IMG/VR virus record: IMGVR_UViG_2778261569_000004
DNA length: 13,057 nucleotides
Source of the DNA: a virus
Taxonomy: Duplodnaviria; Heunggongvirae; Uroviricota; Caudoviricetes
Reading direction: 5' to 3' (one strand)
Positions 1 to 13,057 of the stretch are shown here, one piece after another. Below the pieces are notes generated by a model. The model worked only from the letters and a program-made list of their open reading frames with translations. It did no database searches and was not told the DNA's origin. The translations under genes and the position numbers were made by a program. Within the stretch, counting starts at the first letter, position 1. Each line of letters begins with the position of its first letter.

Positions 1-69
1 ACGATACCGATACCAACGCACCAACTCTTCACGAAAATTAGCCCTGACAAGCTCAGCTATCGTACTCAT
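1..69 (-). CDS. Hypothetical phage protein, N-terminal part only (gene continues past the window start)
   Basis: ATG at 69..67 (minus) preceded by a GGAGG Shine-Dalgarno (plus 80-84, reverse complement); frame stays open to the window edge. Too short to assign a family. Confidence 0.3.
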   Translation of the reverse strand, partial: MSTIAELVRANFREELVRWYRYR

Positions 70-201
70 TTCTTAAAACCTCCTCAAACGCATTCTGACG
101 CATTTTTCATTCTCGCTGCTTATCGGTATACCTTGCACGTGCTTACCTCACCACAGAGCGATTGTGATGCCTTAAAAGCGATTTATTGAAGTGATATTTG
201 C

Positions 202-480
202 TTAATCGAAATTCTTTTCTTTGATTCCTGCGGCCCTGATGGCTTTCATTACTGCAATTACCGTTTTGTCACGCCCATCCTCATAACCCATCGCATAAGC
301 ACCTTCTTCACCATCTTTCCAAAGGTCGTCATTCGATTCGGGCCAGTCGATATCCAGTTCAATAGCAGAGCGCGATGCCTGCCATATCACCCAGGCAAAC
401 TCTTTTAATTCATCGTCTCCCGTGAACTGGCTTTTGTCTTTTGACCACCAGTTTTCAAACTGTCGGTAGCTATCGTTCAC
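202..480 (-). CDS. Hypothetical nin-region phage protein (about 92 aa)
   Basis: ORF track frame 202..495. I place the start at GTG 480..478 because a GGAGAGGG Shine-Dalgarno sits immediately upstream, whereas the TTG at 495 falls inside the terminator T-tract. Acidic, Trp-rich protein; no family recognised. Confidence 0.45.
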   Translation of the reverse strand: MNDSYRQFENWWSKDKSQFTGDDELKEFAWVIWQASRSAIELDIDWPESNDDLWKDGEEGAYAMGYEDGRDKTVIAVMKAIRAAGIKEKNFD

Positions 481-493
481 TTCCCTCTCCCCC

Positions 494-524
494 AAATAAA
501 AAGGCCTGCGATTACAGCAGGCCT
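494..524 (-). terminator. Rho-independent terminator (minus strand) downstream of the replication-gene cluster
   Basis: Perfect 8-bp stem AGGCCTGC/GCAGGCCT (502-509 / 517-524) with a 7-nt loop; on the minus strand it is followed by TTTTATTT (plus 494-501). Confidence 0.55.
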
Positions 525-549
525 GTTATTAACTCAGTGATGTAGATGG

Positions 550-819
550 TCATTGCTTCATCTCCCTTTCCATTTCATCAATGTCAACGTCATCAGGAAG
601 ATGGGAGCAATACGCCGCTATACCATGATGATTTATCTCATACCCTTTGAACGTTACCATCTGGCGCGTAATCTCAACTTCGTTCAGGAATCCGCCATCG
701 CATAACTGCCTGGCTATTTTCGATTTGGTCTGGATTATTGGTAGTGCCTGTTCTTTCAAAGCGTATGATATTTGCGCATCCCATGCCTTTTCGAGAATGG
801 CTAATTGTTTTTTATTCAT
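550..819 (-). CDS. Hypothetical protein translationally coupled to the helicase gene (89 aa)
   Basis: ATG at 819..817 overlaps the helicase stop codon (819-821) by one nucleotide; ORF track 550..819. No family recognised. Confidence 0.5.
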   Translation of the reverse strand: MNKKQLAILEKAWDAQISYALKEQALPIIQTKSKIARQLCDGGFLNEVEITRQMVTFKGYEINHHGIAAYCSHLPDDVDIDEMEREMKQ

Positions 820-2255
820 CAGAATCCTCCTTTCTTCTTGGACTGCGGTTCCTCGCGTTCACGTCGGCGCATTTCAGCAGACTGTTGGTCTGTGTCATAA
901 ATAGCGCCATTTGCCTGAATGCAATACACCGTGCCGGTATTGCCATGACGATTGAGACGAAGGATTAGTTCGGTTTCACCAGGTGGAACACTGTCATCAA
1001 AAGCACCTTCACGATGGATCCCCACCCAATAATCGCAATCCTGTTCAATCTGCCCTGTATCTCGTGAGTCACTTGGTAATGGGCGTTTATTGGTTCGGCT
1101 TTCCAGTGCGCGGTTAAGTTGCGTCAGAAGCACAACAACGCAATCAAGCTCTTTGGCAAGGTTCTTCAGTCCTTTGGTGATCATGCCGTAAGCAAGGTCG
1201 TTGCGATCGGCCTTCTCAGCGGTCATTAGTGTCAGGTAATCGACCAGAATCATGCCAACACATCCTTTTTCTCGCTTGATTCGACGGCTTTCGCTGACGA
1301 TTTGAGCCAGAGATAATCCCGGCGTGTCGTCGATGTAAAGCATGTCGATTTCACTCAAGCGATTGGCTGTTTCGATCGCCCTGTTGAAGTCACCATCGTA
1401 ATCACCCTGATAGCCGTCATCGGCGTCATTTGTCGCCGGAAGGTAAAAAATATTCGGGTTAACACCAGACTTCTGCCCTACCAGTTTTTCCAGTATCTGA
1501 TCACCTGGCATTTCAAGGCTGAACATCAGAGCGGGCTTTTTCTCATGCACTGCGCAATTGATTGCCATCTGGCTGTATAGCGTCGTTTTCCCCATCTTAG
1601 GGCGAGCGCCAATGACAAACAGAGAGCCTTTCACCAGACCTTTCGGTGACAGCATCCTGTCCAGCGATGGGATCCCTGTGCTCATTCCCCGTTGTTCGCC
1701 TGATGGGTCAAATCGCTTCTCAAGGTCGCTAACCCAGTCTTCCATGACCTCGCCAAATGAGCGAAGGCCGCGACGCGATCCGGTTTTTGCATGGTCTGTC
1801 AGTTGCGTGAAAATCGCCTGAATAGCTTCGTACTTCTGCGTCGCAGTCATTCCGTTGCGGGAATAGAGCAATTCCGTCGCTTCAGTCATGCGGTTGATGG
1901 CGTAGCGTTCCATTGCGGTTTCGCGAACCTGCATTGCATAGGCAACGATGTTTGCGGCGCTCGGCGTGTTCTTTGCGATCTCAGCGATATAAGCAAAACC
2001 GCCAACAGACGCCGTTAACGATTTACGCTCCAGTTCATCGAAAAGCGTCAGGCCATCTACTGGCTTTTGCTCCCGGTGCATTCTGGTTATTTCTTCGAAA
2101 AGGATTTTGTGTGGTCGGCTGTAAAATGAATCGGGCTTCAGCATCGCCAGAACTTTCTGGACGCGCTCACTGCTGTCATCATCCAGAAGCAATCCACCAA
2201 TCACCGCCTGCTCTGCCTCGATGCTATGGGGCGGCGCATAAAAATTATCGGTCAT
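819..2255 (-). CDS. Replicative DNA helicase, DnaB family (P22 gene 12-type)
   Basis: N-terminal motif PHSIEAEQAVIGGLLLDD typical of the DnaB N-terminal domain; Walker A GARPKMGKTT; Walker B-like ILVDYLTLM; overall RecA-like helicase layout. Start placed at ATG 2255 ([11 protein letters not shown]) with a GAGGGTGA Shine-Dalgarno upstream, rather than the GTG at 2270 used by the ORF track. Confidence 0.9.
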   Translation of the reverse strand: MTDNFYAPPHSIEAEQAVIGGLLLDDDSSERVQKVLAMLKPDSFYSRPHKILFEEITRMHREQKPVDGLTLFDELERKSLTASVGGFAYIAEIAKNTPSAANIVAYAMQVRETAMERYAINRMTEATELLYSRNGMTATQKYEAIQAIFTQLTDHAKTGSRRGLRSFGEVMEDWVSDLEKRFDPSGEQRGMSTGIPSLDRMLSPKGLVKGSLFVIGARPKMGKTTLYSQMAINCAVHEKKPALMFSLEMPGDQILEKLVGQKSGVNPNIFYLPATNDADDGYQGDYDGDFNRAIETANRLSEIDMLYIDDTPGLSLAQIVSESRRIKREKGCVGMILVDYLTLMTAEKADRNDLAYGMITKGLKNLAKELDCVVVLLTQLNRALESRTNKRPLPSDSRDTGQIEQDCDYWVGIHREGAFDDSVPPGETELILRLNRHGNTGTVYCIQANGAIYDTDQQSAEMRRREREEPQSKKKGGF

Positions 2256-3144
2256 CGTGTTCACCCTCACGAACTTTCAGGTAGGTATTGTCGTTAAGCA
2301 GGAAATCAAATCCCTTTTTGTGCCAGACGGTTCCGCGCTGATGGTTTGGGCGCTCTTCGAACATCCATCGGCAATTTTCGCCTACGTAGCTCAAATAATT
2401 TCTCCAGTCCTGCATCGTGAACCCATGCCCGTCAAGCTGGCGGGTTATCACTCCGGCTTTGCGCCAGAACGTTCGGATCTGGTTTTTACGCTTGTCATTC
2501 AGTGCGCGGATTTTTGGCGCTTCAGGAAGGATTTCGTGGTAAGCATCGACAACATCCTGACAGCTGACGGAAGGTTTTTTCTTGTCAGACTTTTTGTCTG
2601 CTGTGGCACTCTCTAATACGTCAGTATTAGAGATAATATTATTATATTCTTTATCTGTGGTAATTTGCTGGTAATCTGCTGGTACAGTATTGCTTGCAGG
2701 CATTGGTATTGCTGGCTTTGAGGTGGTAATTTGCTGGTAATCTGCTGGTACAAAATTTGACTGATAATCGTCATATTTCTCTACCGAGAAAACTGAGAAT
2801 TTACCGTGTGAAACCCAGTCAATCATGCCGAGTTTTTTGAACTTTCTAAGCAGGTACTGAACGCGATCTGGTTTGAGTCCTGTTTCAAACGCCAGAGAGT
2901 TTCTACCGCCAAGTAGCTTCCCTCTGCCTACCAGAATTTCTCCTGCGTCAGTCATTACATACTCAGGCGTATGCTTTGCTTTGAGGATTAAGTGAACCCA
3001 CAGATGCGCAGCTTCTGCGTCCTTGTAAAACGGCACATCCATAATTTTACGGTGCAGCAAGGCATACCCCTTACCGCTGCTTTGATGCGGTTGTTGTAGC
3101 CTTCTGGCCTCTCTGGCTTCGGCTAGATTAGATATGTTACTCAT
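2245..3144 (-). CDS. Replication initiator protein (lambda O / P22 gene 18 analogue) with origin iterons inside its coding sequence
   Basis: Sits between cII and the helicase as O does in lambdoid phages. Contains a direct-repeat iteron array plus an adjacent AT-rich tract (see repeat feature). AAGGAG Shine-Dalgarno before ATG 3144. The 3' end overlaps the helicase start by 11 nt. The protein is not obviously lambda-O-like by eye, so the family assignment rests on position and the iterons. Confidence 0.7.
2657..2753. repeat. Origin-of-replication iteron array (ori) inside the O-like gene
   Basis: Two perfect 30-bp direct repeats GTGGTAATTTGCTGGTAATCTGCTGGTACA at 2657-2686 and 2724-2753. Each holds two approximately 11-bp subunits GGTAAT(T/C)TGCTGG, with a degenerate copy GGTATTGCTGG at 2705-2716. 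An AT-rich tract (about 2615-2655) lies downstream in the O reading direction, as at ori-lambda. The repeats encode a duplicated [10 protein letters not shown] peptide in the initiator. Confidence 0.7.
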
Positions 3145-3283
3145 GACCTTTCTCCTTCTGCATCAGCTTCACTTTTTCCAACTCAGCCCGGAATCGACAA
3201 GGCTGCTTGAAGCTGGACAGGAAGCGATCACGTAGTATGTGTTTGTGAATTTTGTCCTGGTAAGGACTGAGTTGTTTTGTCAT
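3137..3283 (-). CDS. Putative small protein (48 aa) between cII and the initiator gene
   Basis: ATG at 3283..3281 with an AGGAG Shine-Dalgarno 7 nt upstream; translation [48 protein letters not shown]; stop overlaps the initiator start. Below the ORF-track size cut-off and unsupported by homology. Confidence 0.25.
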
Positions 3284-3317
3284 AATTACTCCTGTGGATT
3301 GATCCAGTCTTTCTACA

Positions 3318-3596
3318 TCAGGCCTCGAAGAATTCGCCGTTCTTCGGGGCTTTTTCTTTTGTCAGGATTCTGGCTACTTTCTTAGCCAGTTCCGCCAACT
3401 CCTCGTCTTCAACACCCCATTCAAGAACAGCCAGAAGCATTCCCATTTTGGGGATGAAGCTATCTTTCCATCGCGAAATTTGCGATTCATTAATCCCTAA
3501 CGCGTCGGCAACCTTTCGCTGACCACGTACAGCAATTCGATTCAGGATGTTGCTTGTAATTGCATTCGCTTTCTTGCGAGTACTTGTAAGTTGCAT
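3318..3596 (-). CDS. cII: CII transcriptional activator (lysogeny establishment)
   Basis: Recognised similarity to lambda CII, including the near-identical block SQISRWK...[13 protein letters not shown]. The translation-initiation region TAAGGAAATACTTACATATG matches the classic lambda cII ribosome-binding site, so the start is ATG 3596, not the upstream start in the ORF track. Confidence 0.85.
3323..3360 (+). terminator. Rho-independent terminator on the strand antisense to cII (oop-like terminator)
   Basis: Stem CCTCGAAGAA/TTCTTCGGGG (3323-3332 / 3340-3349, one G-U pair), 7-nt loop, then CTTTTTCTTTT (3350-3360). It lies on the plus strand inside the 3' end of minus-strand cII, the geometry of the lambda oop RNA terminator. 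Confidence 0.55.
3550..3563 (+). promoter_or_regulatory. CII-binding site TTGC-N6-TTGC (PRE-like establishment promoter -35 region)
   Basis: TTGCTTGTAATTGC on the plus strand inside the cII N-terminal codons, oriented to drive transcription antisense through cro towards cI, as lambda PRE does. The -10 element is not confidently identified. Confidence 0.5.
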
Positions 3597-3655
3597 ATGT
3601 AAGTATTTCCTTAACAAATAAGAAGTTATGCGCATCAAATTATGCGCGTTGTATT

Positions 3656-3698
3656 CCCGCATTTCGGCGGGAATGATGACCATGACTGTTAAAGAGCG
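3656..3698 (-). promoter_or_regulatory. nutR site (boxA plus boxB hairpin)
   Basis: On the minus strand just after the cro stop: boxA CGCTCTTTAACA (plus 3687-3698, reverse complement), then boxB hairpin CCCGC-CGAAAT-GCGGG (plus 3656-3671). The boxB sequence is identical to the one at nutL. Confidence 0.6.
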
Positions 3699-3704
3699 GT
3701 GTTA

Positions 3705-3899
3705 CTATTTGTTTTTCTTGTTGCTTGGGAAAGGACGAACTTCCTCTCCAATCACACTGCCATCAGGCTTTACCGTAACCATGATGTTACGGCCTGCCAG
3801 AATGGCCTTGCTGATAGCGCACTGGATTACACCAAAGTCACTGGCTGCTTTAGCCTGTCCATGGATTTTGGCGTAATCGGCAAGTGTCATTCGAATCAT
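3705..3899 (-). CDS. cro: Cro repressor
   Basis: Recognised similarity to lambda Cro (TLADYA..GQ.K.A.D.GV.Q.AI.KAI.AGR.I.....DGSV..EEV.PFPSNKK). Start placed at ATG 3899 with a GGAGAG Shine-Dalgarno 5 nt upstream. Divergent from cI across the operator region. Confidence 0.85.
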
Positions 3900-3929
3900 A
3901 TGCACTCTCCGTTATTAACCATGAACAAA

Positions 3930-3995
3930 GAATACTACAGGTATTCAAAGCAATCAATACTCAGGGTATTTTTAGTTTAAGTACCTTAGCTATTA
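3930..3995. promoter_or_regulatory. OR operator region: three 17-bp operators with divergent PR and PRM promoters
   Basis: Operators GAATACTACAGGTATTC (3930-3946) and CAATACTCAGGGTATTT (3955-3971) are palindromic; a degenerate third site AAGTACCTTAGCTATTA lies at 3979-3995. Centre spacings are 25 and 24 bp. PR candidate on the minus strand: -35 TTGATT, 17-bp spacer, -10 TATTCT. PRM candidate on the plus strand: -10 TAGAAT at 3994-3999, which places +1 at about the A of the cI ATG (leaderless; no Shine-Dalgarno before cI). Confidence 0.6.
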
Positions 3996-4005
3996 GAATT
4001 AAGCT

Positions 4006-4722
4006 ATGGAAAATAAAAAATCACTGACGACAGAACAGCTCGAAGACGCTAAGCGGCTTAAGGCTTTGTATGAGTCAAAAAAGAAAGAATTGGGAATAAC
4101 CCAATACTCAATCGCTGATGAACTGGGTATCACCCAAGGAGCGGTAGGGCATTATCTTAATGGCAGAAACGCGCTAAACGTTGAGGTCGCATCTGGTTTT
4201 GCACGTTTGTTGCAAGTCTCAATTGCTGATTTTAGCCAGTCAATTGCTGCCAAGGTTGCAGAACAGGCAGAAAGCCTTAAGAGCGATGCCAACGTAAGGT
4301 ATGCAGGGGAATACAGAGCAGGAAAGAGGTATCCGGTGTTAAGCAGTATCCAGGCTGGCTCGTGGTGTGAAGCATGCGAACCATACACCATTAAAGACAT
4401 AGATGTTTGGCTTGAGTCTGACGCGCATATTCAAGGTAATGCGTTCTGGCTTAAAGTGGAAGGTGATTCAATGACGGCACCGGTTGGGTTAAGCATTCCA
4501 GAGGGAACATTCGTTCTTTTCGATACCGGAAGGGAGGCGATCAACGGCAGCTTGGTCATAGCAAAACTTTCTGACTCTAACGAAGCAACATTCAAGAAGC
4601 TGATAATCGACGGCGGAAATAAATACCTCAAGGGACTTAATCCTGCATGGCCTCTCGTGCCAATCAATGGAAACTGCAAGATTATAGGCGTTGCAATTGA
4701 GACAAAACTAAGGCTGGTTTGA
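4006..4722 (+). CDS. cI: CI repressor (HTH DNA-binding domain plus LexA/S24-type autocleavage domain)
   Basis: Recognised similarity to lambda CI: N-terminal LTxEQLEDAKRLKALYE.KK.ELG..Q.S.AD..G and C-terminal FWL.VEGDSMTAP ... ATFKKLI (Ser/Lys dyad). Divergent from cro. Confidence 0.9.
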   Translation: MENKKSLTTEQLEDAKRLKALYESKKKELGITQYSIADELGITQGAVGHYLNGRNALNVEVASGFARLLQVSIADFSQSIAAKVAEQAESLKSDANVRYAGEYRAGKRYPVLSSIQAGSWCEACEPYTIKDIDVWLESDAHIQGNAFWLKVEGDSMTAPVGLSIPEGTFVLFDTGREAINGSLVIAKLSDSNEATFKKLIIDGGNKYLKGLNPAWPLVPINGNCKIIGVAIETKLRLV

Positions 4723-4739
4723 TCACGCAAGGGGCGATT

Positions 4740-5108
4740 ATGGTTGGAACCGCTATAGCAAGCTTTTTTGGGATGTTGGCAATCTCGACAATTTACGGCT
4801 TAGCGCATGCTTTTATTGCGAAATCTCTATCAGAAAAAATAAGCCAGGCTTGGGCGCATAGATCAGCTCGTTTCATGATTCTGGTGATCATAGCAATACA
4901 AGGGATATCTGCATTTATCCTCTATGGATCAAGCTTATACCTATTGTATCAAGGCGCGACATTTACGCCTTACACCAGTGATTACGGAACTCTATACGAT
5001 GGTAGTGAAGACATCACTGTGGCTTGGATCGTCTTTGGTTTATCTATGGCCGTGTCTGTTGTAGCAGACATCATTAAGGTAATTCTCGTCTTAACCTTCG
5101 CTGACTAA
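4740..5108 (+). CDS. Small integral membrane protein in the rex/sie position, co-transcribed with cI (candidate superinfection-exclusion or defence protein)
   Basis: ORF track frame 4719..5108; start placed at ATG 4740 with an AAGGGG Shine-Dalgarno, 18 nt after the cI stop. Three hydrophobic helices predicted by eye (about residues 1-25, 45-70 and 95-120). It occupies the lambda rexAB slot between cI and OL. No homologue recognised. Confidence 0.6.
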   Translation: MVGTAIASFFGMLAISTIYGLAHAFIAKSLSEKISQAWAHRSARFMILVIIAIQGISAFILYGSSLYLLYQGATFTPYTSDYGTLYDGSEDITVAWIVFGLSMAVSVVADIIKVILVLTFAD

Positions 5109-5193
5109 CCTATAATCCCGGCAGCAATAGCTATCGGGATCCACTTCACATATCCCGCATAAAAAGCACTGAACAAGCAGACACCGAAAAAAT

Positions 5194-5281
5194 AAATATC
5201 CTTTGTATTCATTTGCTTATCATTATTTCACCAAAAATAAATACCTTGGGTATTTACACAATAAAATACCTACAGTATTCT
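5194..5281 (+). promoter_or_regulatory. OL operator region and PL promoter
   Basis: Three 17-bp operators of the same family as OR: AAATATCCTTTGTATTC (5194-5210), AAATACCTTGGGTATTT (5239-5255) and AAATACCTACAGTATTC (5264-5280). PL candidate: -35 TTTACA (5253-5258), 17-bp spacer, -10 TATTCT (5276-5281), overlapping the operators as in lambda. Confidence 0.55.
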
Positions 5282-5326
5282 TTAGCCATCAGCAGGGCGC
5301 TGGAAGCCAAACGGAACAGATTGGCA

Positions 5327-5367
5327 GGCTCTTTAACATTGATGGGATTGTCCCGCCGAAATGCGGG
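5327..5367 (+). promoter_or_regulatory. nutL site (boxA plus boxB hairpin)
   Basis: boxA GGCTCTTTAACA (5327-5338) followed by boxB CCCGC-CGAAAT-GCGGG (5352-5367), identical to the boxB at nutR; lies in the leader between PL and N. Confidence 0.6.
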
Positions 5368-5475
5368 AACCAAAGAGTAGTTGGCTTTGGGGTGACGTGA
5401 AGTGCAGCTGCACGACGGCAACCGGAAGATAAGCACCCGGCGCGTCACCGCCAAAGTCAATCATCGGAGGTCAAC

Positions 5476-5748
5476 ATGACAGTAGTCATTACATATCTGG
5501 CTGACGATAACGCCAGAAATCGCCGCAGAGCACGCAGACAGGCTCAACGTGAACAGGCAATGCAAGAGCAGCGACTGGCACGAAAAATTGCGCTAAAGCT
5601 CTCTGGTTGCGTCAGAGCAGATAAAGCAGCATCACTCGGAAGCCTTTGCTGCAAGGAAGAAGATGAACGCAGTGGAAGTATTTGCCTGCCAAACGTAGCC
5701 ATTTACGCGGCAGGATACCGGAAATCAAAACAACTGACAGCGAGGTAA
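5476..5748 (+). CDS. N: Antitermination protein N (P22 gene 24-like)
   Basis: N-terminal arginine-rich motif NARNRRRARRQAQREQ (boxB RNA-binding ARM); C-terminus ...AIYAAGYRKSKQLTAR resembles my recollection of P22 gp24; GGAGG Shine-Dalgarno; first gene downstream of PL and nutL. Confidence 0.8.
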   Translation: MTVVITYLADDNARNRRRARRQAQREQAMQEQRLARKIALKLSGCVRADKAASLGSLCCKEEDERSGSICLPNVAIYAAGYRKSKQLTAR

Positions 5749-5751
5749 GTG

Positions 5752-5976
5752 ATGAATCAGACATACATTCCATCATGCTTGAGAAATCTGCCAAAGCAGA
5801 AAGCAAAGCCCCGCAAGCAAGCCATAAAGGACGCTAAGGCAGAGGTTATTGATCAAGCAATACAATTGCTCAGGGAGGAGTTAAGAAGTGGCAAGCTCGA
5901 AGGAATGATGATGCCCTATCAGCGCGGATATCTATCGGCGATTAGTAAGTTGGAAGTATTGAAGAGTGAATTATGA
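5752..5976 (+). CDS. Hypothetical early protein (74 aa)
   Basis: ATG 5752 with a GAGG Shine-Dalgarno, starting 4 nt after the N stop. Basic N-terminus, predicted helical. In the position of ral or kil-type genes but not recognisably similar. Confidence 0.45.
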   Translation: MNQTYIPSCLRNLPKQKAKPRKQAIKDAKAEVIDQAIQLLREELRSGKLEGMMMPYQRGYLSAISKLEVLKSEL

Positions 5977-6038
5977 ACTATCTGGAATTTCCGGATGGTT
6001 CATTGTTTTGGCAGCAAACCACTTATTTGAGGTGATGT

Positions 6039-6125
6039 ATGGAAGAAGAATTTGAAGAGTTCGAAGAGCATCCTCAGGATGTGATGGAACAATACCAGGA
6101 CTATCCGTATGACTACGACTATTGA
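6039..6125 (+). CDS. Putative very small acidic protein (28 aa)
   Basis: ATG 6039 preceded by GAGGTGA; translation MEEEFEEFEEHPQDVMEQYQDYPYDYDY. Below the ORF-track cut-off; speculative. Confidence 0.2.
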   Translation: MEEEFEEFEEHPQDVMEQYQDYPYDYDY

Positions 6126-6309
6126 TAAAAATCAATGGTGTGGACAATTCAAGCGATGCAATGGATGCAAGCTGCAATCGGAATGCATGGTTAAGCCTGA
6201 AGAAATGTTTCCTGTAATGGAAGATGGGGAATATGTCGATAAATGGGCAATACGAACGACGGCAATGATTGCCAGAGAACTTGGTAAACTGAACAACAAG
6301 GCTGCCTGA
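6109..6309 (+). CDS. Hypothetical small Cys-containing protein (66 aa)
   Basis: ORF track. Four cysteines in CGQFKRCNGCKLQSEC, a possible metal-binding knuckle. Ends just before a terminator. Confidence 0.4.
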   Translation: MTTTIDKNQWCGQFKRCNGCKLQSECMVKPEEMFPVMEDGEYVDKWAIRTTAMIARELGKLNNKAA

Positions 6310-6327
6310 TGGCGGCCTTTATTTTTG
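6298..6327 (+). terminator. Rho-independent terminator
   Basis: Stem AAGGCTGCC/GGCGGCCTT with a TGAT tetraloop, followed by TATTTTTGG. Confidence 0.6.
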
Positions 6328-6374
6328 GCATAAACAACAGAATAAACACAGCACTGAATTATTTGAGGTGAGAT

Positions 6375-6845
6375 ATGACAAAATCATGGAGCGTACCTTT
6401 TCCTGAATCAGAAACTGAACATGATGGAATGCCTGTTTTCTGGAGATTCCAAGCGACAGTTGAAGAAGATGGAATCAAAATATTCGCACTTCAATATATA
6501 GCTTTTCATCAGACAGATCATTATGCATGGTTGGTTCCTGCGCATTGGATTGTTAATTTTAAACCAGCACCAAATCAGTGGTTACAGGAATGGAAACAAA
6601 GGAGAAATAGATATGCAATTAAGAAAGTAGCAAAAAATGCCGAAAGATCTTTTGCATTCCCGACGAAGAAACTTGCCATTGAAAGTTTATTGCGCCGGAA
6701 GAAGTACCATTTAATGAGAATCAAACAAGATTTGGCTGTTGTATCAACTCTTGTTGATGGGATGAAGAATATTGATACATCAATACCAGATATTGAATAT
6801 AACTTTGGACACAACCAAGAAACAGAAAATTGGGTGTTTTATTAG
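6375..6845 (+). CDS. Hypothetical protein on a low-GC moron-like insert (156 aa)
   Basis: ATG 6375 with a GAGGTGA Shine-Dalgarno. A hand count over the first 300 nt gives roughly 37% G+C, against roughly 45% at the start of erf. Bracketed by the terminator at 6298-6327 upstream and by an inverted repeat (6860-6887) and terminator-like hairpin (6951-6974) downstream. No family recognised. Confidence 0.6.
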   Translation: MTKSWSVPFPESETEHDGMPVFWRFQATVEEDGIKIFALQYIAFHQTDHYAWLVPAHWIVNFKPAPNQWLQEWKQRRNRYAIKKVAKNAERSFAFPTKKLAIESLLRRKKYHLMRIKQDLAVVSTLVDGMKNIDTSIPDIEYNFGHNQETENWVFY

Positions 6846-7039
6846 TACGAATAAGCACTGTGTATTCATTCCAACGAGTGAATACACGGAGCAATGTCGC
6901 TCGTAACTAAACAGGAGCCGACTTGTTCTGATTATTGGAAATCTTCTTTGCCCTCCAGTGTGAGGGCCTTTTTATATGCATACCAATAACGCTTCACTCG
7001 AGGCGTTTTCGTTATGCAATCAAACAGAAGGAGCATCCT

Positions 7040-7210
7040 ATGCAACAGTTCGCTATTGCAGGGGCGGCATCGGTTCGCCCTTTCAACCCGATTTTATCGG
7101 TACAGCATTCACGAAAAAATATTTTAACCGGAGCAGACTTTAAACAACCAAGAATGAAAAGCTTGCTCGAAAAGCTTTGGGATATTTTGAAACAACAAGG
7201 CCGCCCATGA
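7040..7210 (+). CDS. Hypothetical small protein (56 aa)
   Basis: ATG 7040 with a GAAGGAG Shine-Dalgarno 6 nt upstream; in frame with the longer TTG-initiated ORF in the track (6935), which I consider an over-extension. Confidence 0.4.
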   Translation: MQQFAIAGAASVRPFNPILSVQHSRKNILTGADFKQPRMKSLLEKLWDILKQQGRP

Positions 7211-7377
7211 GTTTTACAGATAACTGGTCAGACGAAGAATTCATTCGTCAGATGAAAGAATTAATCGGTAACGAAGGAGATATTCATGTCACTTGCAACC
7301 ACCGTGAAGGAGAGCAAGTTACAGAGACGCATGTACACGCAGCAGGCGTTAATGTATCGCCAGAAGGGAGATCGTGA
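7207..7377 (+). CDS. Hypothetical small protein (56 aa), directly upstream of erf (Arf-like position)
   Basis: ATG 7207 overlaps the stop of the preceding gene (ATGA). Its position matches P22 arf, but that is not verifiable by eye. Confidence 0.35.
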   Translation: MSFTDNWSDEEFIRQMKELIGNEGDIHVTCNHREGEQVTETHVHAAGVNVSPEGRS

Positions 7378-7466
7378 AGGTGTTCGCGTATTTTTAAATG
7401 CGGCAAAGACTGAAGTATTAAATCAGCGTTATTTCCTTGGGCCATGTCCATTCTGAGAACAATCAT

Positions 7467-8072
7467 ATGAGCAAAGAATTTTACGCAAGACTGGCAGCTA
7501 TTCAGGAAAATCTGAACGCGCCCAAGAATCAGTACAACTCATTCGGTAAATATAAATACAGAAGCTGCGAAGACATTCTTGAAGGCGTTAAGCCGTTACT
7601 GAATGGTCTGTTTTTATCAATCAGCGATGAAGTTGTGTTGATTGGTAATCGGTATTACGTGAAAGCCACGGCAACTATTACCGATGGCGAAAACAGTCAT
7701 ACGGCAACCGCTCTTGCACGAGAGGAAGAAAGCAAGAAAGGAATGGATTCTGCACAAGTTACGGGAGCTACAAGCTCTTATGCACGCAAGTATTGCCTCA
7801 ATGGTTTGTTCGGCATTGATGATGCGAAAGATGCAGATACAGACGAGCATAAACATCAGCAGAACGCAGCAGCAAAGCAATCAAAACCATCACCTACACC
7901 TGAACAGGTTCTAAAAGCATTCACTGACGCAGCATTGCAGAAAAACACCGTAGAAGAGCTTAAACAGGCGTTCGCCAAAGCGTGGAAGATGCTCGAAGGC
8001 ACACCGGAGCAGCACAAAGCGCAGGACGTTTACAACATCAGACGAGACGAATTAGAAGGAGCGGCTGCTTAA
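7467..8072 (+). CDS. erf: Erf-family single-strand annealing recombinase
   Basis: N-terminal region MSKEFYARLAAIQENLNAPKNQYNSFGKYKYRSCEDILEGVKPLL matches my recollection of P22 Erf closely. Start at ATG 7467, not the upstream start in the ORF track. Confidence 0.8.
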   Translation: MSKEFYARLAAIQENLNAPKNQYNSFGKYKYRSCEDILEGVKPLLNGLFLSISDEVVLIGNRYYVKATATITDGENSHTATALAREEESKKGMDSAQVTGATSSYARKYCLNGLFGIDDAKDADTDEHKHQQNAAAKQSKPSPTPEQVLKAFTDAALQKNTVEELKQAFAKAWKMLEGTPEQHKAQDVYNIRRDELEGAAA

Positions 8073-8455
8073 TGGCACATTCGATTACTGTAAGACTAAA
8101 CAAGCCCGCAAGAGAGTTTCAGGCCGGGGAAAATATCGGATTCAACATCCGTGCTGGCGTTCAGTATTACGATCGCCAGACAAAAAAGAAAGAATGGACA
8201 AACTACAACGCCGTTGTATTTGCCAAGCCGGGAGCGCAAGCGGATTACTACCGTAGTGTTCTTGTTGAAGGTGGCATTGTAGAAATTACCGGAGAAAACA
8301 TCAGGGTTGATGTTTATCAGGGGCAAAATGGTCAATCAATCACTCTTGAATTACTGAATGCAAAGATTGGATTTGCAGCTTCAGGAAATGGCCCGCAGCA
8401 GCAAAGTAGTAACCAGCAGAACACCCCTGTATACGACGATTCCATCCCATTCTGA
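8072..8455 (+). CDS. Putative ssDNA-binding protein with an SSB-type C-terminal tail (128 aa)
   Basis: ATG 8072 overlaps the erf stop (TAATG). C-terminus ...GNGPQQQSSNQQNTPVYDDSIPF has a Gln/Asn-rich linker ending in DDSIPF, mirroring the E. coli SSB tail (DDDIPF). The N-terminal region is not canonical SSB by eye, so the OB-fold assignment is inferred. Confidence 0.55.
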   Translation: MAHSITVRLNKPAREFQAGENIGFNIRAGVQYYDRQTKKKEWTNYNAVVFAKPGAQADYYRSVLVEGGIVEITGENIRVDVYQGQNGQSITLELLNAKIGFAASGNGPQQQSSNQQNTPVYDDSIPF

Positions 8456-8478
8456 TTTAGAAAAATAAGGATTTAATT

Positions 8479-8772
8479 ATGCCAGCGCCTCTGTATGGTG
8501 CGGATGACCCGCGCCGCTGTTCCGGCAATTCCGTATCGGAGGTGCTGGATAAATTCAGGAAAAATTACGACCGGATAATGTCGCTACCGCAGGAAACAAA
8601 AGAGGAAAAGGAATTTCGCCACTGCGTATGGCTTGCAGAGAAAGAAGAACGCGAGCGAATTTACCAGACATCAATCCGACCATTCCGCAAAGCCACATAT
8701 ACCCACTTCCCTGAAATTGACCCGCGCCTGCGTAATTACCGCTCACGCTATGGCGCTATCAGTAATAACTGA
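8479..8772 (+). CDS. Hypothetical early protein (97 aa); size and position compatible with an Abc2-like anti-RecBCD protein
   Basis: ORF track. Lies downstream of erf, where P22 carries abc1 and abc2. The Abc2 assignment is positional and from memory only. Confidence 0.4.
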
Positions 8773-8782
8773 GGAATTTACC

Positions 8783-8950
8783 ATGAGAGGACTTGCATAC
8801 AATCCCAGCATTCTTCCGGCAGAAATGATTATTCGCCAGCGCGTAAAGCCAATGCCATCGAGAGAGGAATTACTTAAGAGAAATTCTTTTCCGTCAGTAA
8901 ATCAAAACAAATATCTGAATGCGATGTTGCGTAAAGGAGGCAAGCAGTGA
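8783..8950 (+). CDS. Hypothetical small protein (55 aa)
   Basis: ATG 8783 with a GAGGA Shine-Dalgarno; same frame as the longer ORF in the track. Confidence 0.35.
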
Positions 8951-9246
8951 GTGTATGTCTTATTGATAAACGTCGACGTGGGCAACAAATACCATCTGTT
9001 GAAATGCCGAATCACACATGGTTTTGCGTACTTGATATCGATGGTATGGATACGTTGGTTGACACTCGTCATTACTGCGATACCGCAACAGCTACTCCGG
9101 CGAAAGCAAAGAAAATTGCTGCTCTGATAGAAAACTGGACTCCACCTGATGGTTGGTGCAATGGGAATGATCGAGATTGGCATGAAAAAATGAAGGGCTA
9201 TATCTGCGATTTCTTACGTAAATGCAACGGATTCAGGGTGATGTGA
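8947..9246 (+). CDS. Hypothetical protein (99 aa)
   Basis: GTG 8947 with a strong AAGGAGG Shine-Dalgarno 8 nt upstream; overlaps the preceding stop (GTGA). No family recognised. Confidence 0.45.
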
Positions 9247-9247
9247 C

Positions 9248-9802
9248 ATGAACAAGATTGACTATCAGGCACTGCGTGCCAAGGCAGAAAAAGCAACGTG
9301 TGGTGAGTGGTCGCTCGAATATGGAGAGGAGAGATTTGATGCTGGTGATGCGCTAATTCATCGTGAAGTTGTTGGATATCTTCCCATTTGCAGAATTGAA
9401 GGAGCGCATCCTGAAAGCGGTTTCGATGAAGATTTCCAGATGGAACAGCAGGCCAATGCTGAATTTATTGCTGCCTTTAATCCAAAGGTTGCTTTGGCAC
9501 TGCTGGATGAACGGGAAAGAAACCAGCAATACATCAAACGCCGCGACCAGGAGAACGAGGATATTGCGCTAACGGTAGGGAAGCTGCGCGTTGAGCTTGA
9601 AGCAGAAAAACAGCGGGCAAAAGTTCTATTTATGGAAAATGCTCGGCTTAAGTCAGGCATAGCCGGTCTGATACACCTCGGTATTCGATATGCAGATGTT
9701 GAGGTCATGAAAATTGCTGGAGATGCCCAGCTTTCTACCCCATGCACTGACAGCATCATAAACAGCATTGCAACAGGCATTCGCATCAAAGGAGGTGAGT
9801 AA
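9248..9802 (+). CDS. Hypothetical protein with a coiled-coil segment (184 aa); possibly Ead/Ea22-like
   Basis: ORF track. The N-terminus QALRAKAEKATCGEW resembles a motif I associate with prophage Ead/Ea22-like proteins; the central region ERERNQQYIKRRDQENEDIALTVGKLRVELEAEKQRAKV looks coiled-coil. Confidence 0.45.
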   Translation: MNKIDYQALRAKAEKATCGEWSLEYGEERFDAGDALIHREVVGYLPICRIEGAHPESGFDEDFQMEQQANAEFIAAFNPKVALALLDERERNQQYIKRRDQENEDIALTVGKLRVELEAEKQRAKVLFMENARLKSGIAGLIHLGIRYADVEVMKIAGDAQLSTPCTDSIINSIATGIRIKGGE

Positions 9803-9978
9803 TGCGTGTGGCATGTATCGGCTTGTTACCGTACCCGACTCGTTTTTGGGCTTCTGCGCTAATTGCAAAGCCGCATGTCCTGATGGCTGACAACATCATC
9901 CCGGCACCAAAGCGCCGCCATACCGGTATTGCATCGGCACGACGAGCAGCAAAGAAACGCAGGAGAGCAAAACGATGA
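9802..9978 (+). CDS. Putative small basic protein (58 aa)
   Basis: ATG 9802 overlaps the upstream stop (TAATG) and its own stop overlaps the next start (ATGA). Translation MRVACIGLLPYPTRFWASALIAKPHVLMADNIIPAPKRRHTGIASARRAAKKRRRAKR. Below the ORF-track cut-off. Confidence 0.3.
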   Translation: MRVACIGLLPYPTRFWASALIAKPHVLMADNIIPAPKRRHTGIASARRAAKKRRRAKR

Positions 9979-10163
9979 AAAACCGTAAAGCAAAGATTCT
10001 GTTAGTTCGTAGAAACGCTCCTGGCGTCTGGCAGTGGGTGAGACTCAGCAACCGACGGGTGGGGTTAATGAAACATTACGGGATGATGGATTGTGGTTTT
10101 TGCAAAAAGCCCAGCGCGGCGCAAAACCGCTGGAAAAACCACTTGCGTACTAAAGGAGAGTGA
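9975..10163 (+). CDS. Hypothetical small protein (62 aa)
   Basis: ORF track; start coupled to the upstream gene. Confidence 0.4.
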   Translation: MKNRKAKILLVRRNAPGVWQWVRLSNRRVGLMKHYGMMDCGFCKKPSAAQNRWKNHLRTKGE

Positions 10164-10164
10164 T

Positions 10165-10374
10165 ATGGCTATTGCCGCAAGTTACACCATGCATCTCTAT
10201 TGTGACTGCCGCCAGTGTACGGAAGGTGTATATCCAGTGCCAGACTTCGGAGAGTATATCGGCACGTCATGGGCTGGTTGTGCAAAAGAGGCGCGTAAGG
10301 ATGGCTGGCGAATAAGCAAAGACAAAACACGTGCTTTTGCGCCTGGGCATAAAGTTTTGAGGATTAACAAATGA
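10165..10374 (+). CDS. Hypothetical small Cys-rich protein (69 aa)
   Basis: ATG 10165 preceded by AAGGAGAG; contains C-x-C-x2-C ... C (HLYCDCRQC...AGC). Confidence 0.4.
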   Translation: MAIAASYTMHLYCDCRQCTEGVYPVPDFGEYIGTSWAGCAKEARKDGWRISKDKTRAFAPGHKVLRINK

Positions 10375-10697
10375 CCACTATTACCAGAGAACAAGCTCTG
10401 AAAATTATTGAGGCAGCCGATGAGGTTATTAGTGCGCTTGCCGGAACTAACGAGGATGTTCACCCTGGTAGCGATAACATGCTACGCCTGTGGGATGACC
10501 TGAATGACCGTTACGCGCCGCCGGAAGTTGTGCGTGAGCTGGCACGGATTGCGCTGGCATCGTTGGAAGCAAAACCAATAGGTGCTTCCACATTGCAGAA
10601 CAGCAAGTTGACGGCACAAGTGACTACCTCAAGGATGGAGAATGGCCTATTGATAATGGGACAATTGAAGTATACGCCGCCCCTCCAGTGCCAGTAG
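10371..10697 (+). CDS. Hypothetical protein (108 aa)
   Basis: ATG 10371 overlaps the upstream stop (ATGA); ORF track. Confidence 0.45.
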   Translation: MTTITREQALKIIEAADEVISALAGTNEDVHPGSDNMLRLWDDLNDRYAPPEVVRELARIALASLEAKPIGASTLQNSKLTAQVTTSRMENGLLIMGQLKYTPPLQCQ

Positions 10698-11173
10698 TAC
10701 CTGAAGAAAAACCAATGCCTAACCCTCTTAGCATGTACGCGGTCGATGCTGTTGCCGCTATTGCAGAGGTGAGAGGCTGGAACGCCTGCCGCGCCGCCAT
10801 GCTTCATGGTGCCGAACCTGTAAGCCAAACTTACAAGTCACAACACACGCAGTTTGAACAAGTTGCTGACCTCTACGAAATGCAATTTGATGACGGTCGC
10901 ACTTGTGCCTTTCACACTGATGCGCAAAAGGCTGCGCAATGGCTTCAGGCATGCGACGGAAACAGGGTTCAGGAATACGTGAAGCTGGAGCGATTGCGTA
11001 ATGCGCTATCGGGCAACTCTCCGGTAACTCCGGATGGTTGGGTTATGGTGCCGAAGGAACCAACTCAGGCCATGATTAAAGCGTGGCTATCAGAGATTGC
11101 TAACTTTCGCGGTCATGCTGCTGGTTACAGGGCTGCTCTTGAGGCAGCACCACAGGAGGTTAACCGTGGCTAA
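10688..11173 (+). CDS. Hypothetical protein (161 aa from a GTG start; frame open upstream to 10538)
   Basis: ORF track, GTG start with no clear Shine-Dalgarno. Protein-like sequence (DGEWPIDNGTIEVYAAPPVP) continues upstream in the same frame, overlapping the previous gene. Confidence 0.4.
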   Translation: MPVVPEEKPMPNPLSMYAVDAVAAIAEVRGWNACRAAMLHGAEPVSQTYKSQHTQFEQVADLYEMQFDDGRTCAFHTDAQKAAQWLQACDGNRVQEYVKLERLRNALSGNSPVTPDGWVMVPKEPTQAMIKAWLSEIANFRGHAAGYRAALEAAPQEVNRG

Positions 11174-11450
11174 CCTGCAACTTGCCGTCAAAGGTGAATA
11201 CTTCGATGCCATGATTCGCGGAGAGAAAACAGAAGAGTATCGCCTGTGTAATGACTACTGGAATAAGCGAATTATGTTCCGGGAGTATGACCGCCTGATT
11301 ATCACAAAGGGATATCCGAAGCGCGACGACTCCAGCCGCAGAATAGACGTCCCGTATGACGGATATGAAATCAAGACAATCACACATCCCCACTTCGGCG
11401 ATAAACCGGTAAAGGTGTTCGCGATAAATGTGAATATCGGCAATGAATAA
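11166..11450 (+). CDS. Hypothetical protein, possibly ASCH/PUA-like (DUF3850-like), about 95 aa
   Basis: GTG 11166 preceded by AGGAGG. The pattern KGEYFDAMIRGEKTEEYRLCND ... resembles my recollection of DUF3850/ASCH phage proteins. The ORF track gives a longer upstream start at 11097. Confidence 0.4.
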   Translation: MANLQLAVKGEYFDAMIRGEKTEEYRLCNDYWNKRIMFREYDRLIITKGYPKRDDSSRRIDVPYDGYEIKTITHPHFGDKPVKVFAINVNIGNE

Positions 11451-11485
11451 CAACCCTCGCATTTGCGGGGATTTCTTTTATCTGA

Positions 11486-11509
11486 ACTCGCTACGGCGAG
11501 TTTTGTTTT
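11486..11509 (+). terminator. Rho-independent terminator
   Basis: Stem ACTCGC/GCGAGT with a TACG loop, followed by TTTTGTTTT. Confidence 0.5.
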
Positions 11510-11821
11510 ATGGAGATGATTATGGTCTGTTCAACATTCAACCATCTAACGTTACAGAAATACCAGCCAGACCCTGAAGATTTATGCTCACTGTGTGGCG
11601 GAAATCATGGTAAAGCCGCCATGATCGAATGTAATGACAAAATCCACATTTGCCTTAATTGCGTTGATGTCCTCGTTGATATCAAAAATGAGAGAGAAGA
11701 TAAAAAGCGTAGCGAGGCTATTCGCGCCTTAGATTCATGGATGCGAGATGGGTATAGTGCTGCGCAAATTTATGACTTAGCAATATCAAAAGGCGAAATA
11801 CCAGGAGTACGCATCGAATAA
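11510..11821 (+). CDS. Hypothetical zinc-ribbon-like protein (103 aa)
   Basis: ORF track. Two Cys pairs, CSLCGG and CLNC, about 20 residues apart. An alternative start at ATG 11522 is better placed relative to the GGAG at 11512-11515. Confidence 0.45.
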   Translation: MEMIMVCSTFNHLTLQKYQPDPEDLCSLCGGNHGKAAMIECNDKIHICLNCVDVLVDIKNEREDKKRSEAIRALDSWMRDGYSAAQIYDLAISKGEIPGVRIE

Positions 11822-11861
11822 GACATAACCGATATTCGAATTGAAGAACTGAAAGAACACC

Positions 11862-11888
11862 AAGCCGCCTGATGGCGGTTTCTTTTTG
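11862..11888 (+). terminator. Rho-independent terminator
   Basis: Stem AAGCCGCC/GGCGGTTT with a TGAT tetraloop, followed by CTTTTTG. Confidence 0.6.
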
Positions 11889-11902
11889 CCTGGAGAATTA
11901 AG

Positions 11903-12094
11903 ATGACCGATACCAGCCTGATTCCTGAGAAAGAAGTGATGAACAAGCTCGGTGTTTCATCACGTCAGACAATCTGGAACTATACCAAACGACACGGATT
12001 TCCGAAGCCAGTCAGAACCCACCCCAAATCATACCTTCGTGAAGCTGTTGAAGGGTGGATTCTTAACGGTGGCGTTAATCAGAAATGCTCCTGA
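11903..12094 (+). CDS. xis: AlpA-type excisionase / DNA-binding regulator
   Basis: AlpA-family pattern (EVMNKLGVSSRQTIWNYTKRHGFPKPVR...W). The 3' end overlaps the integrase 3' end, convergently. Confidence 0.55.
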   Translation: MTDTSLIPEKEVMNKLGVSSRQTIWNYTKRHGFPKPVRTHPKSYLREAVEGWILNGGVNQKCS

Positions 12095-12499
12095 TGTGCC
12101 AGAACAATTTATCAGCGTGAAGCTCATACGCTTTGCGCTGAGCCTCTATCCAATCGTGTTTATTGTATACGGACATTATCCCGCCAAGTTCATGACCGAG
12201 CATTCGCTCAGTAACATGAGGCTCGACATTCATCTCGGACAGACGTGTAACAAGCGTTCTTCTGAAATCATGTGTTCGCCAGTAACCTAGATCCATCCCT
12301 CCCCTTATTCTATTTACGAATCGGTTGGCTGCAGCGATGCTGATCGGTTTGTTTATGTCTTCTCCAGGGAAAAGAACATCATTGTACGTTGTCATGGCCT
12401 TTTCGAGAAAAGGCTTAATTTGTTCGAAGATTGGACGACGGATAACATTACCCATCTTGCTATGCTCTTTCGGTACGGTCCATACGTTGTCCAGCAGGT
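12075..12499 (-). pseudogene. int: Tyrosine integrase, C-terminal catalytic fragment only; N-terminal part displaced by an IS insertion
   Basis: Catalytic motifs HDFRRT and LGHELGGIMSVYNKHDW (Tyr nucleophile) present. The reading frame runs upstream without a stop to the IS terminus at 12500; the conserved box I Arg and the N-terminal domain are absent from this side. Confidence 0.75.

Positions 12500-13057
<558 letters not shown>

Follow-up and report, generated by a model that had tools for sequence, protein, structure and literature searches.

The overlapping open reading frames (ORFs) that begin at positions 10371 and 10688 of the window (the whole 13 057 nucleotide stretch of DNA that was analysed) are almost certainly, with a probability of roughly 0.94, parts of one ancestral 804 nt gene, encoding a protein of 267 aa, that was split in two by the loss of one A and is now an ordinary frameshift pseudogene in an O111 prophage. 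The pseudogene status is already known, as identical sequences are flagged in RefSeq. The PGAP annotation there treats the window-identical sequence as a single pseudogene CDS in the O111:H8 genomes CP077531.1 and CP077519.1.

Reading frames in the window

All coordinates for this gene refer to the + strand. ORF1 (10371–10697; 108 aa) is preceded by a GAGGA Shine–Dalgarno sequence and begins with an ATG at 10371 that overlaps the stop codon of an upstream gene of 69 aa (ATGA). ORF2 (10688–11173; 161 aa) was called from a GTG at 10688–10690, and its frame is −1 with respect to that of ORF1. The gene downstream of it, an ASCH gene, is preceded by AGGAGG.

An earlier note on this DNA had pointed out that the open frame of ORF2 extends back to 10538, well upstream of the GTG, and that it overlaps the 3′ codons of ORF1. 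Both observations were confirmed. A TGA at 10535–10537 lies immediately upstream of the open stretch, and the two frames are both open across approximately 160 nt. Upstream of the GTG, the ORF2 frame translates as ...FHIAEQQVDGTSDYLKDGEWPIDNGTIEVYAAPPVPVV... and, in another excerpt, as ...CFHIAEQQVDGTSDYLKDGEWPIDNGTIEVYAAPPVPVV.... We estimate the chance of an open stretch of 50 codons in random sequence at about 9%, and by itself the open stretch is not beyond chance. The GTG was also correctly described as having no convincing Shine–Dalgarno sequence. The sequence directly upstream of it, AAGTATACGCCGCCCCTCCA, holds none, and none was found when the next in-frame ATG codons, at 10715 and 10733, were examined in the same way, unlike at the starts of ORF1 and the ASCH gene.

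Comparison with the intact allele

The reference for the intact gene was that encoding WP_000208130.1 (267 aa) in E. coli O111:H- strain 11128 (accession number NC_013364.1), where the 804 nt allele is annotated as one CDS and translates as a clean ORF of 267 aa. In a four-way DNA alignment that included the window, 11128 and strain E2863, the window differed from the intact gene by a single gap at alignment column 216, with the other positions identical (803 of 803). One A is missing between 10585 and 10586, where the window reads GGTGC/TTCC (the slash marks the missing base) and the intact allele reads GGTGCATTCC.

The part of the ancestral gene 5′ to this 1 bp deletion (10371–10585, equivalent to bases 1501–1715 of the 11128 record) comprises codons 1–71 and the first two bases of codon 72. 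The 3′ part (10586–11173, equivalent to bases 1717–2304) continues in the −1 frame from F73 to G267 and ends with a TAA at 11171–11173. The ancestral peptide across the deletion site, KPIGAFHIAEQQ, spans ...KPIGA/FHIAEQQ.... Residues 1–72 of ORF1 (MTT...KPIGA) are authentic, and residues 73–108 make up an out-of-frame tail (10586–10697) of 36 residues, STLQNSKLTAQVTTSRMENGLLIMGQLKYTPPLQCQ, encoded by codons at 10587–10694 and closed by a premature TAG at 10695–10697. Neither the intact protein nor any of the phage homologues in the alignment has a counterpart of this tail.

The open stretch upstream of the GTG had been read as plausible protein, and this was correct for one part of it only. 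The stretch at 10586–10687 is identical to residues 73–106 of the intact 267 aa protein and is an orphaned coding stretch without a start codon; within it, the YAAPPVPVVPEEKP part is conserved in other phages. The 16 codons at the upstream end (10538–10585; AGTDCAGIVGSKTNRC) are N-terminal coding region read out of frame that, by chance, contains no stop codon. Hence, the frame looks open and protein-like on the 5′ side of the GTG because it holds orphaned ancestral codons in the −1 frame. The GTG itself is an internal codon, that for Val107 in ...YAAPPV107PVVPEEKP....

Distribution of the deletion in E. coli

When complete E. coli genomes were searched with 10371–11173 using megablast, 17 full-length matches were found, mostly from genomes labelled O111. 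Twelve were 804 nt long (11 at 99.9% identity and one at 99.8%), four were 803 nt long (three at 100% identity and one with a single mismatch) and one was 805 nt long. The gene was intact in 12 of the 17, and one, E2863, had a different indel. In E2863 (bases 1501–2305 of its record), the A is present and an independent C has been gained in the run of four C found at 10680–10683 in the window, which is CCCCC in that strain. RefSeq labels this allele as 'frameshifted'. Unless the change in E2863 is a homopolymer sequencing error, the same accessory gene has been struck twice in O111-type prophages.

A 60 nt probe centred on the deletion site matched 282 E. coli records in 275 genomes. The deleted form, with 60 of 60 bases matching, was present in four of the 282 records, namely O111:H- 110512, O111:H8 2009C-3675, O111:H8 7-16 37A and OkiPb01689. 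Three of these carriers are labelled O111 and the fourth has no serotype label. Among the best 60 matches, and among 60 spread evenly over the whole ranking of 282, every other match spans 61 nt. As this is one base more than the probe, these records hold the extra base. Over the prophage region, carriers and non-carriers are 99.9–100% identical, leaving no phylogenetic signal for a SNP tree. We infer that the deletion arose in one event and that the four carriers have a single origin.

The window was also compared with the closest complete genome, that of O111:H8 strain 7-16 37A (GenBank accession number CP077519.1). Seven substitutions were counted over window positions 1–12499 (12 499 nt), with five in the replication gene region (2290–3462) and none within the frameshifted gene or close to it.

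Gain or loss of one base is the most frequent kind of assembly error, and the remainder of the gene bears no further sign of decay, as would be seen if the missing base were a sequencing or assembly error and the gene were intact in the real organism. This is nevertheless very unlikely. Four complete genomes that were deposited separately (GenBank accession numbers CP077531, CP077519, AP019761 and AP042540) share the deletion, and the intact allele is found within the same sequencing/accession series (e.g. CP077551 and CP077600), which argues against a pipeline artefact. Four independent assemblies, together with the non-homopolymer context of the site (GCATTC), point to a real deletion and make an error unlikely.

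Homologues and protein family

In diverged phage homologues, tblastn matches covered both halves of the gene in one piece. The homologues are p53 of phiV10 (233 aa), Sb31 of ST64B (277 aa) and EaA of phage Gally (267 aa; annotated as 'similar to P22 EaA'), each a single CDS, and p53 has the same flanking genes, with a 210 nt gene before it and the ASCH gene after it. A protein alignment revealed that all three have in common the N-terminal module MTTIT(R/K)E...LASLEA(K/E)P and that each has kept the YAAPPVPVVPEEKP segment in one frame with this module.

Alignment with homologous loci had been proposed in the earlier note as a way of finding out if a single longer ORF exists elsewhere, and one does, in 11128, phiV10, ST64B and Gally; the arrangement in two frames is not a conserved feature. 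The homologues have a single gene and not, consistently, two separate genes, the arrangement named in advance as evidence against a frameshift. As the homologues are single-frame and the deleted form was seen in four of 282 records, the single ORF is ancestral and the split is derived and lineage-restricted. Two features by which a frameshift pseudogene is recognized were found: an intact orthologous allele exists, from which the split one is set apart by an indel whose length is not a multiple of three, and the derived state is present in a subset of the lineage (the four carriers) with the phage outgroups intact.

The intact protein matched phrog_60 over residues 1–266 (E=3.7e-43). Among the shorter PHROGs, phrog_3323 (residues 1–104) and phrog_5117 (residues 1–148) matched the N-terminal part only, and phrog_12449 matched the C-terminal part only (residues 207–263). 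All of the matched PHROGs are in the category of 'unknown' function. With the intact 267 aa protein as query, no Pfam family, DUF551 included, was matched at E≤1, and neither NCBIfam nor a sequence search of the PDB yielded a match. A literature search on EaA/P22 produced nothing bearing on the gene, and we know of no function for any of the EaA, Ea22-like or DUF551-neighbour proteins. Relatives that are annotated as DUF551 have only the N-terminal module in common with the intact protein, which is a mosaic EaA-like accessory protein.

Many relatives have the N-terminal module fused to a DUF551 C-terminus, unlike the gene here. The module (window 10371–10600) is mosaic and widely shared: the 60 nt probe centred on the deletion site matched at 305 places, of which 82 were on plasmids. 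Among the plasmid records listed, most were 90–117 kb, with one of 250 kb, and the size range of 90–117 kb suggests P1-like phage-plasmids.

Prophage context

Using the annotation of the near-identical strain 7-16 37A, the prophage was found to be lambdoid/P22-like and to be inserted beside sbcB. The gene order in this strain is replication genes, cII, cro and the repressor, followed by Ral, ERF recombinase, anti-RecBCD, an Ea22-like gene and three small ORFs, and then by the EaA-like gene, the ASCH gene, a small ORF, an excisionase-like HTH gene and the integrase. In the window, small ORFs at 9802–9978 and 9975–10163 correspond to the RefSeq hypothetical proteins WP_001261535.1 (58 aa) and WP_000797282.1 (62 aa), respectively. 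The products of both are very basic and include Arg/Lys-rich stretches, such as ...ARRAAKKRRRAKR at the C-terminus of the product of 9802–9978.

The match to the reference prophage ends at 12499, and an IS3-family element starts at 12500. Its terminal inverted repeat begins at 12500 with TGAACCGCCCCGGG... (in a longer quotation, TGAACCGCCCCGGGTTTCC...), and the C-terminus of its transposase is encoded on the − strand at 12542–13033 (NF033516, E=1e-56). Judging by its repeat and by the annotation of IS1203 at other sites in the sister genomes, we take this element to resemble IS1203/IS629. The element (window 12500–13057) interrupts a tyrosine integrase, of which a remnant is found at 12075–12499. 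In sister strains the uninterrupted integrase would span 12075–13253, and in the annotations examined a full-length integrase is present at the same position in 11128, 2009C-3675, 7-16 37A and E2863. As these four sister genomes have a full-length integrase, the interruption is a second inactivating lesion in the prophage of the window strain. The frameshift and the IS-disrupted integrase fit a prophage copy that is decaying and gathering inactivating lesions.

Predicted consequences of the deletion

In the proposed course of events, one A was deleted between 10585 and 10586 in an O111 sublineage. Ribosomes starting at the ATG at 10371 would then add the 72 authentic residues, followed by 36 out-of-frame residues, and would stop at the TAG at 10695–10697. 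The other 195 codons (10586–11170) would be left in the −1 frame with neither their own start codon nor their own ribosome-binding site. The C-terminal part would probably not be translated, or would be translated only in traces through reinitiation close to the stop codon of ORF1, and reinitiation at the GTG at 10688 or the ATG at 10715 would at best provide a route to the C-terminal codons. A low level of full-length product may be made by spontaneous frameshifting or reinitiation. In the ancestral arrangement, the stop codon and the start of the ASCH gene shared bases (GTGGCTAA), so that translational coupling between the two genes was probably lost with the deletion, although the ASCH gene keeps its own strong AGGAGG. 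The lack of any other change in the 803 nt and the IS-disrupted integrase in the same prophage copy suggest that the deletion represents recent, neutral decay of a non-essential gene.

We consider it highly improbable that the deletion allele has been kept in an O111 sublineage because the 108 aa product, made up of the N-terminal module and a new tail, is functional by itself, or that a separate C-terminal protein is made via termination at 10695–10697 and reinitiation at the GTG at 10688 or the ATG at 10715. If true, either would be a fresh gene fission in a modular phage accessory family. With the split gene read as a frameshift pseudogene, the ORFs at 10371 and 10688 should be annotated as one frameshifted EaA-like pseudogene rather than as a pair of genes or a site of recoding. 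The deletion could be used as a lineage marker within O111 STEC. It reveals nothing new about frameshifting or phage biology.

Two genes or a programmed frameshift

Two genuine genes that overlap by a short distance and are separately translated, with the C-terminal protein made from the GTG at 10688 or by termination–reinitiation, would be in keeping with the PHROGs that match the N- or C-terminal part alone, which indicate that the family is modular and that its modules stand alone elsewhere. The geometry would also suit reinitiation, as the stop codon of ORF1 (10695–10697) sits 10 nt past the GTG. However, the GTG has no Shine–Dalgarno sequence and is an internal Val codon, ORF1 ends with 36 non-ancestral residues, the split allele is confined to four of 282 records and RefSeq calls it a pseudogene. 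Two such genes are hardly credible. The long out-of-frame overlap of two genes that had been put forward earlier can be set aside too, given homologues that are single ORFs and a GTG that is the codon for an internal Val.

The earlier note had also raised the possibility of one protein joined by a frameshift, either mutational or programmed. The mutational form is supported by the 1 bp gap relative to the intact sister allele; the programmed form is not. The slippery heptamer that it had recommended looking for in the overlap was not found, as a scan of all ORF1-frame codons at 10371–10697 detected no X_XXY_YYZ sequence. No homopolymer longer than four bases is present in 10530–10700, where the longest runs are AAAA (10571) and CCCC (10680), and a run of about eight or more A or T, as needed for slippage, is absent from the junction. 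When the RNA fold of 10560–10720 was compared with dinucleotide shuffles, a comparison that covers structures other than pseudoknots, the minimum free energy was −35.6 kcal/mol and the shuffle mean was −35.1 kcal/mol (z=−0.15), i.e. the region is not extra stable. None of the defining features of a programmed frameshift that can be tested in silico was found.

Though ORF2 is in the correct (−1) frame relative to ORF1 and both frames are open for about 160 nt, fusion of the two into one protein through a programmed −1 ribosomal frameshift like those of lambda G/GT, dnaX or IS3 orfAB, or through transcriptional slippage, is extremely improbable given the absence of a heptamer, a run of more than 4 nt or a stable downstream structure, the single uninterrupted frame in sister strains that differ by the indel alone and in all homologues sampled, and the non-ancestral residues that a shift anywhere other than at the exact deletion site would put into the protein.

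Comparison with known systems

Programmed −1 frameshift sites, such as those of lambda G/GT, dnaX and IS3-family orfA/orfB, resemble the arrangement in the window in having two successive ORFs, the second in the −1 frame, with a stretch where both are open. The arrangement here differs in having no heptamer, no stimulatory structure and no conservation, and a 1 bp deletion explains the junction.

The gene itself resembles those for proteins of the EaA or 'ea' region in its place in the early left operon, between the recombination genes (erf and anti-RecBCD) and xis/int. Gally EaA, ST64B Sb31 and phiV10 p53 are alike in combining the MTTITKE...LASLEAEP module with the central YAAPPVPVVPEEKP linker. 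The EaD–EaA gene order is a point of likeness to Gally, and synteny (the 210 nt gene, p53, then the ASCH gene) is one to phiV10. The intact protein differs from its DUF551 neighbours, as it has no Pfam or NCBIfam match and is not itself a DUF551 protein.

The closest parallels to the split gene are the frameshifted pseudogenes in resident, often defective, lambdoid prophages of Shiga-toxin-producing E. coli (STEC) O111, O157 and O26. As in those cases, a one-base indel affects an accessory gene that is not essential, sister strains have the intact allele, the gene is flagged as a pseudogene by PGAP and an IS is present elsewhere in the prophage copy, here in the integrase gene. There is no substantial difference, and in the window the event is so recent that the 588 nt downstream of the deletion are still identical to the intact allele.
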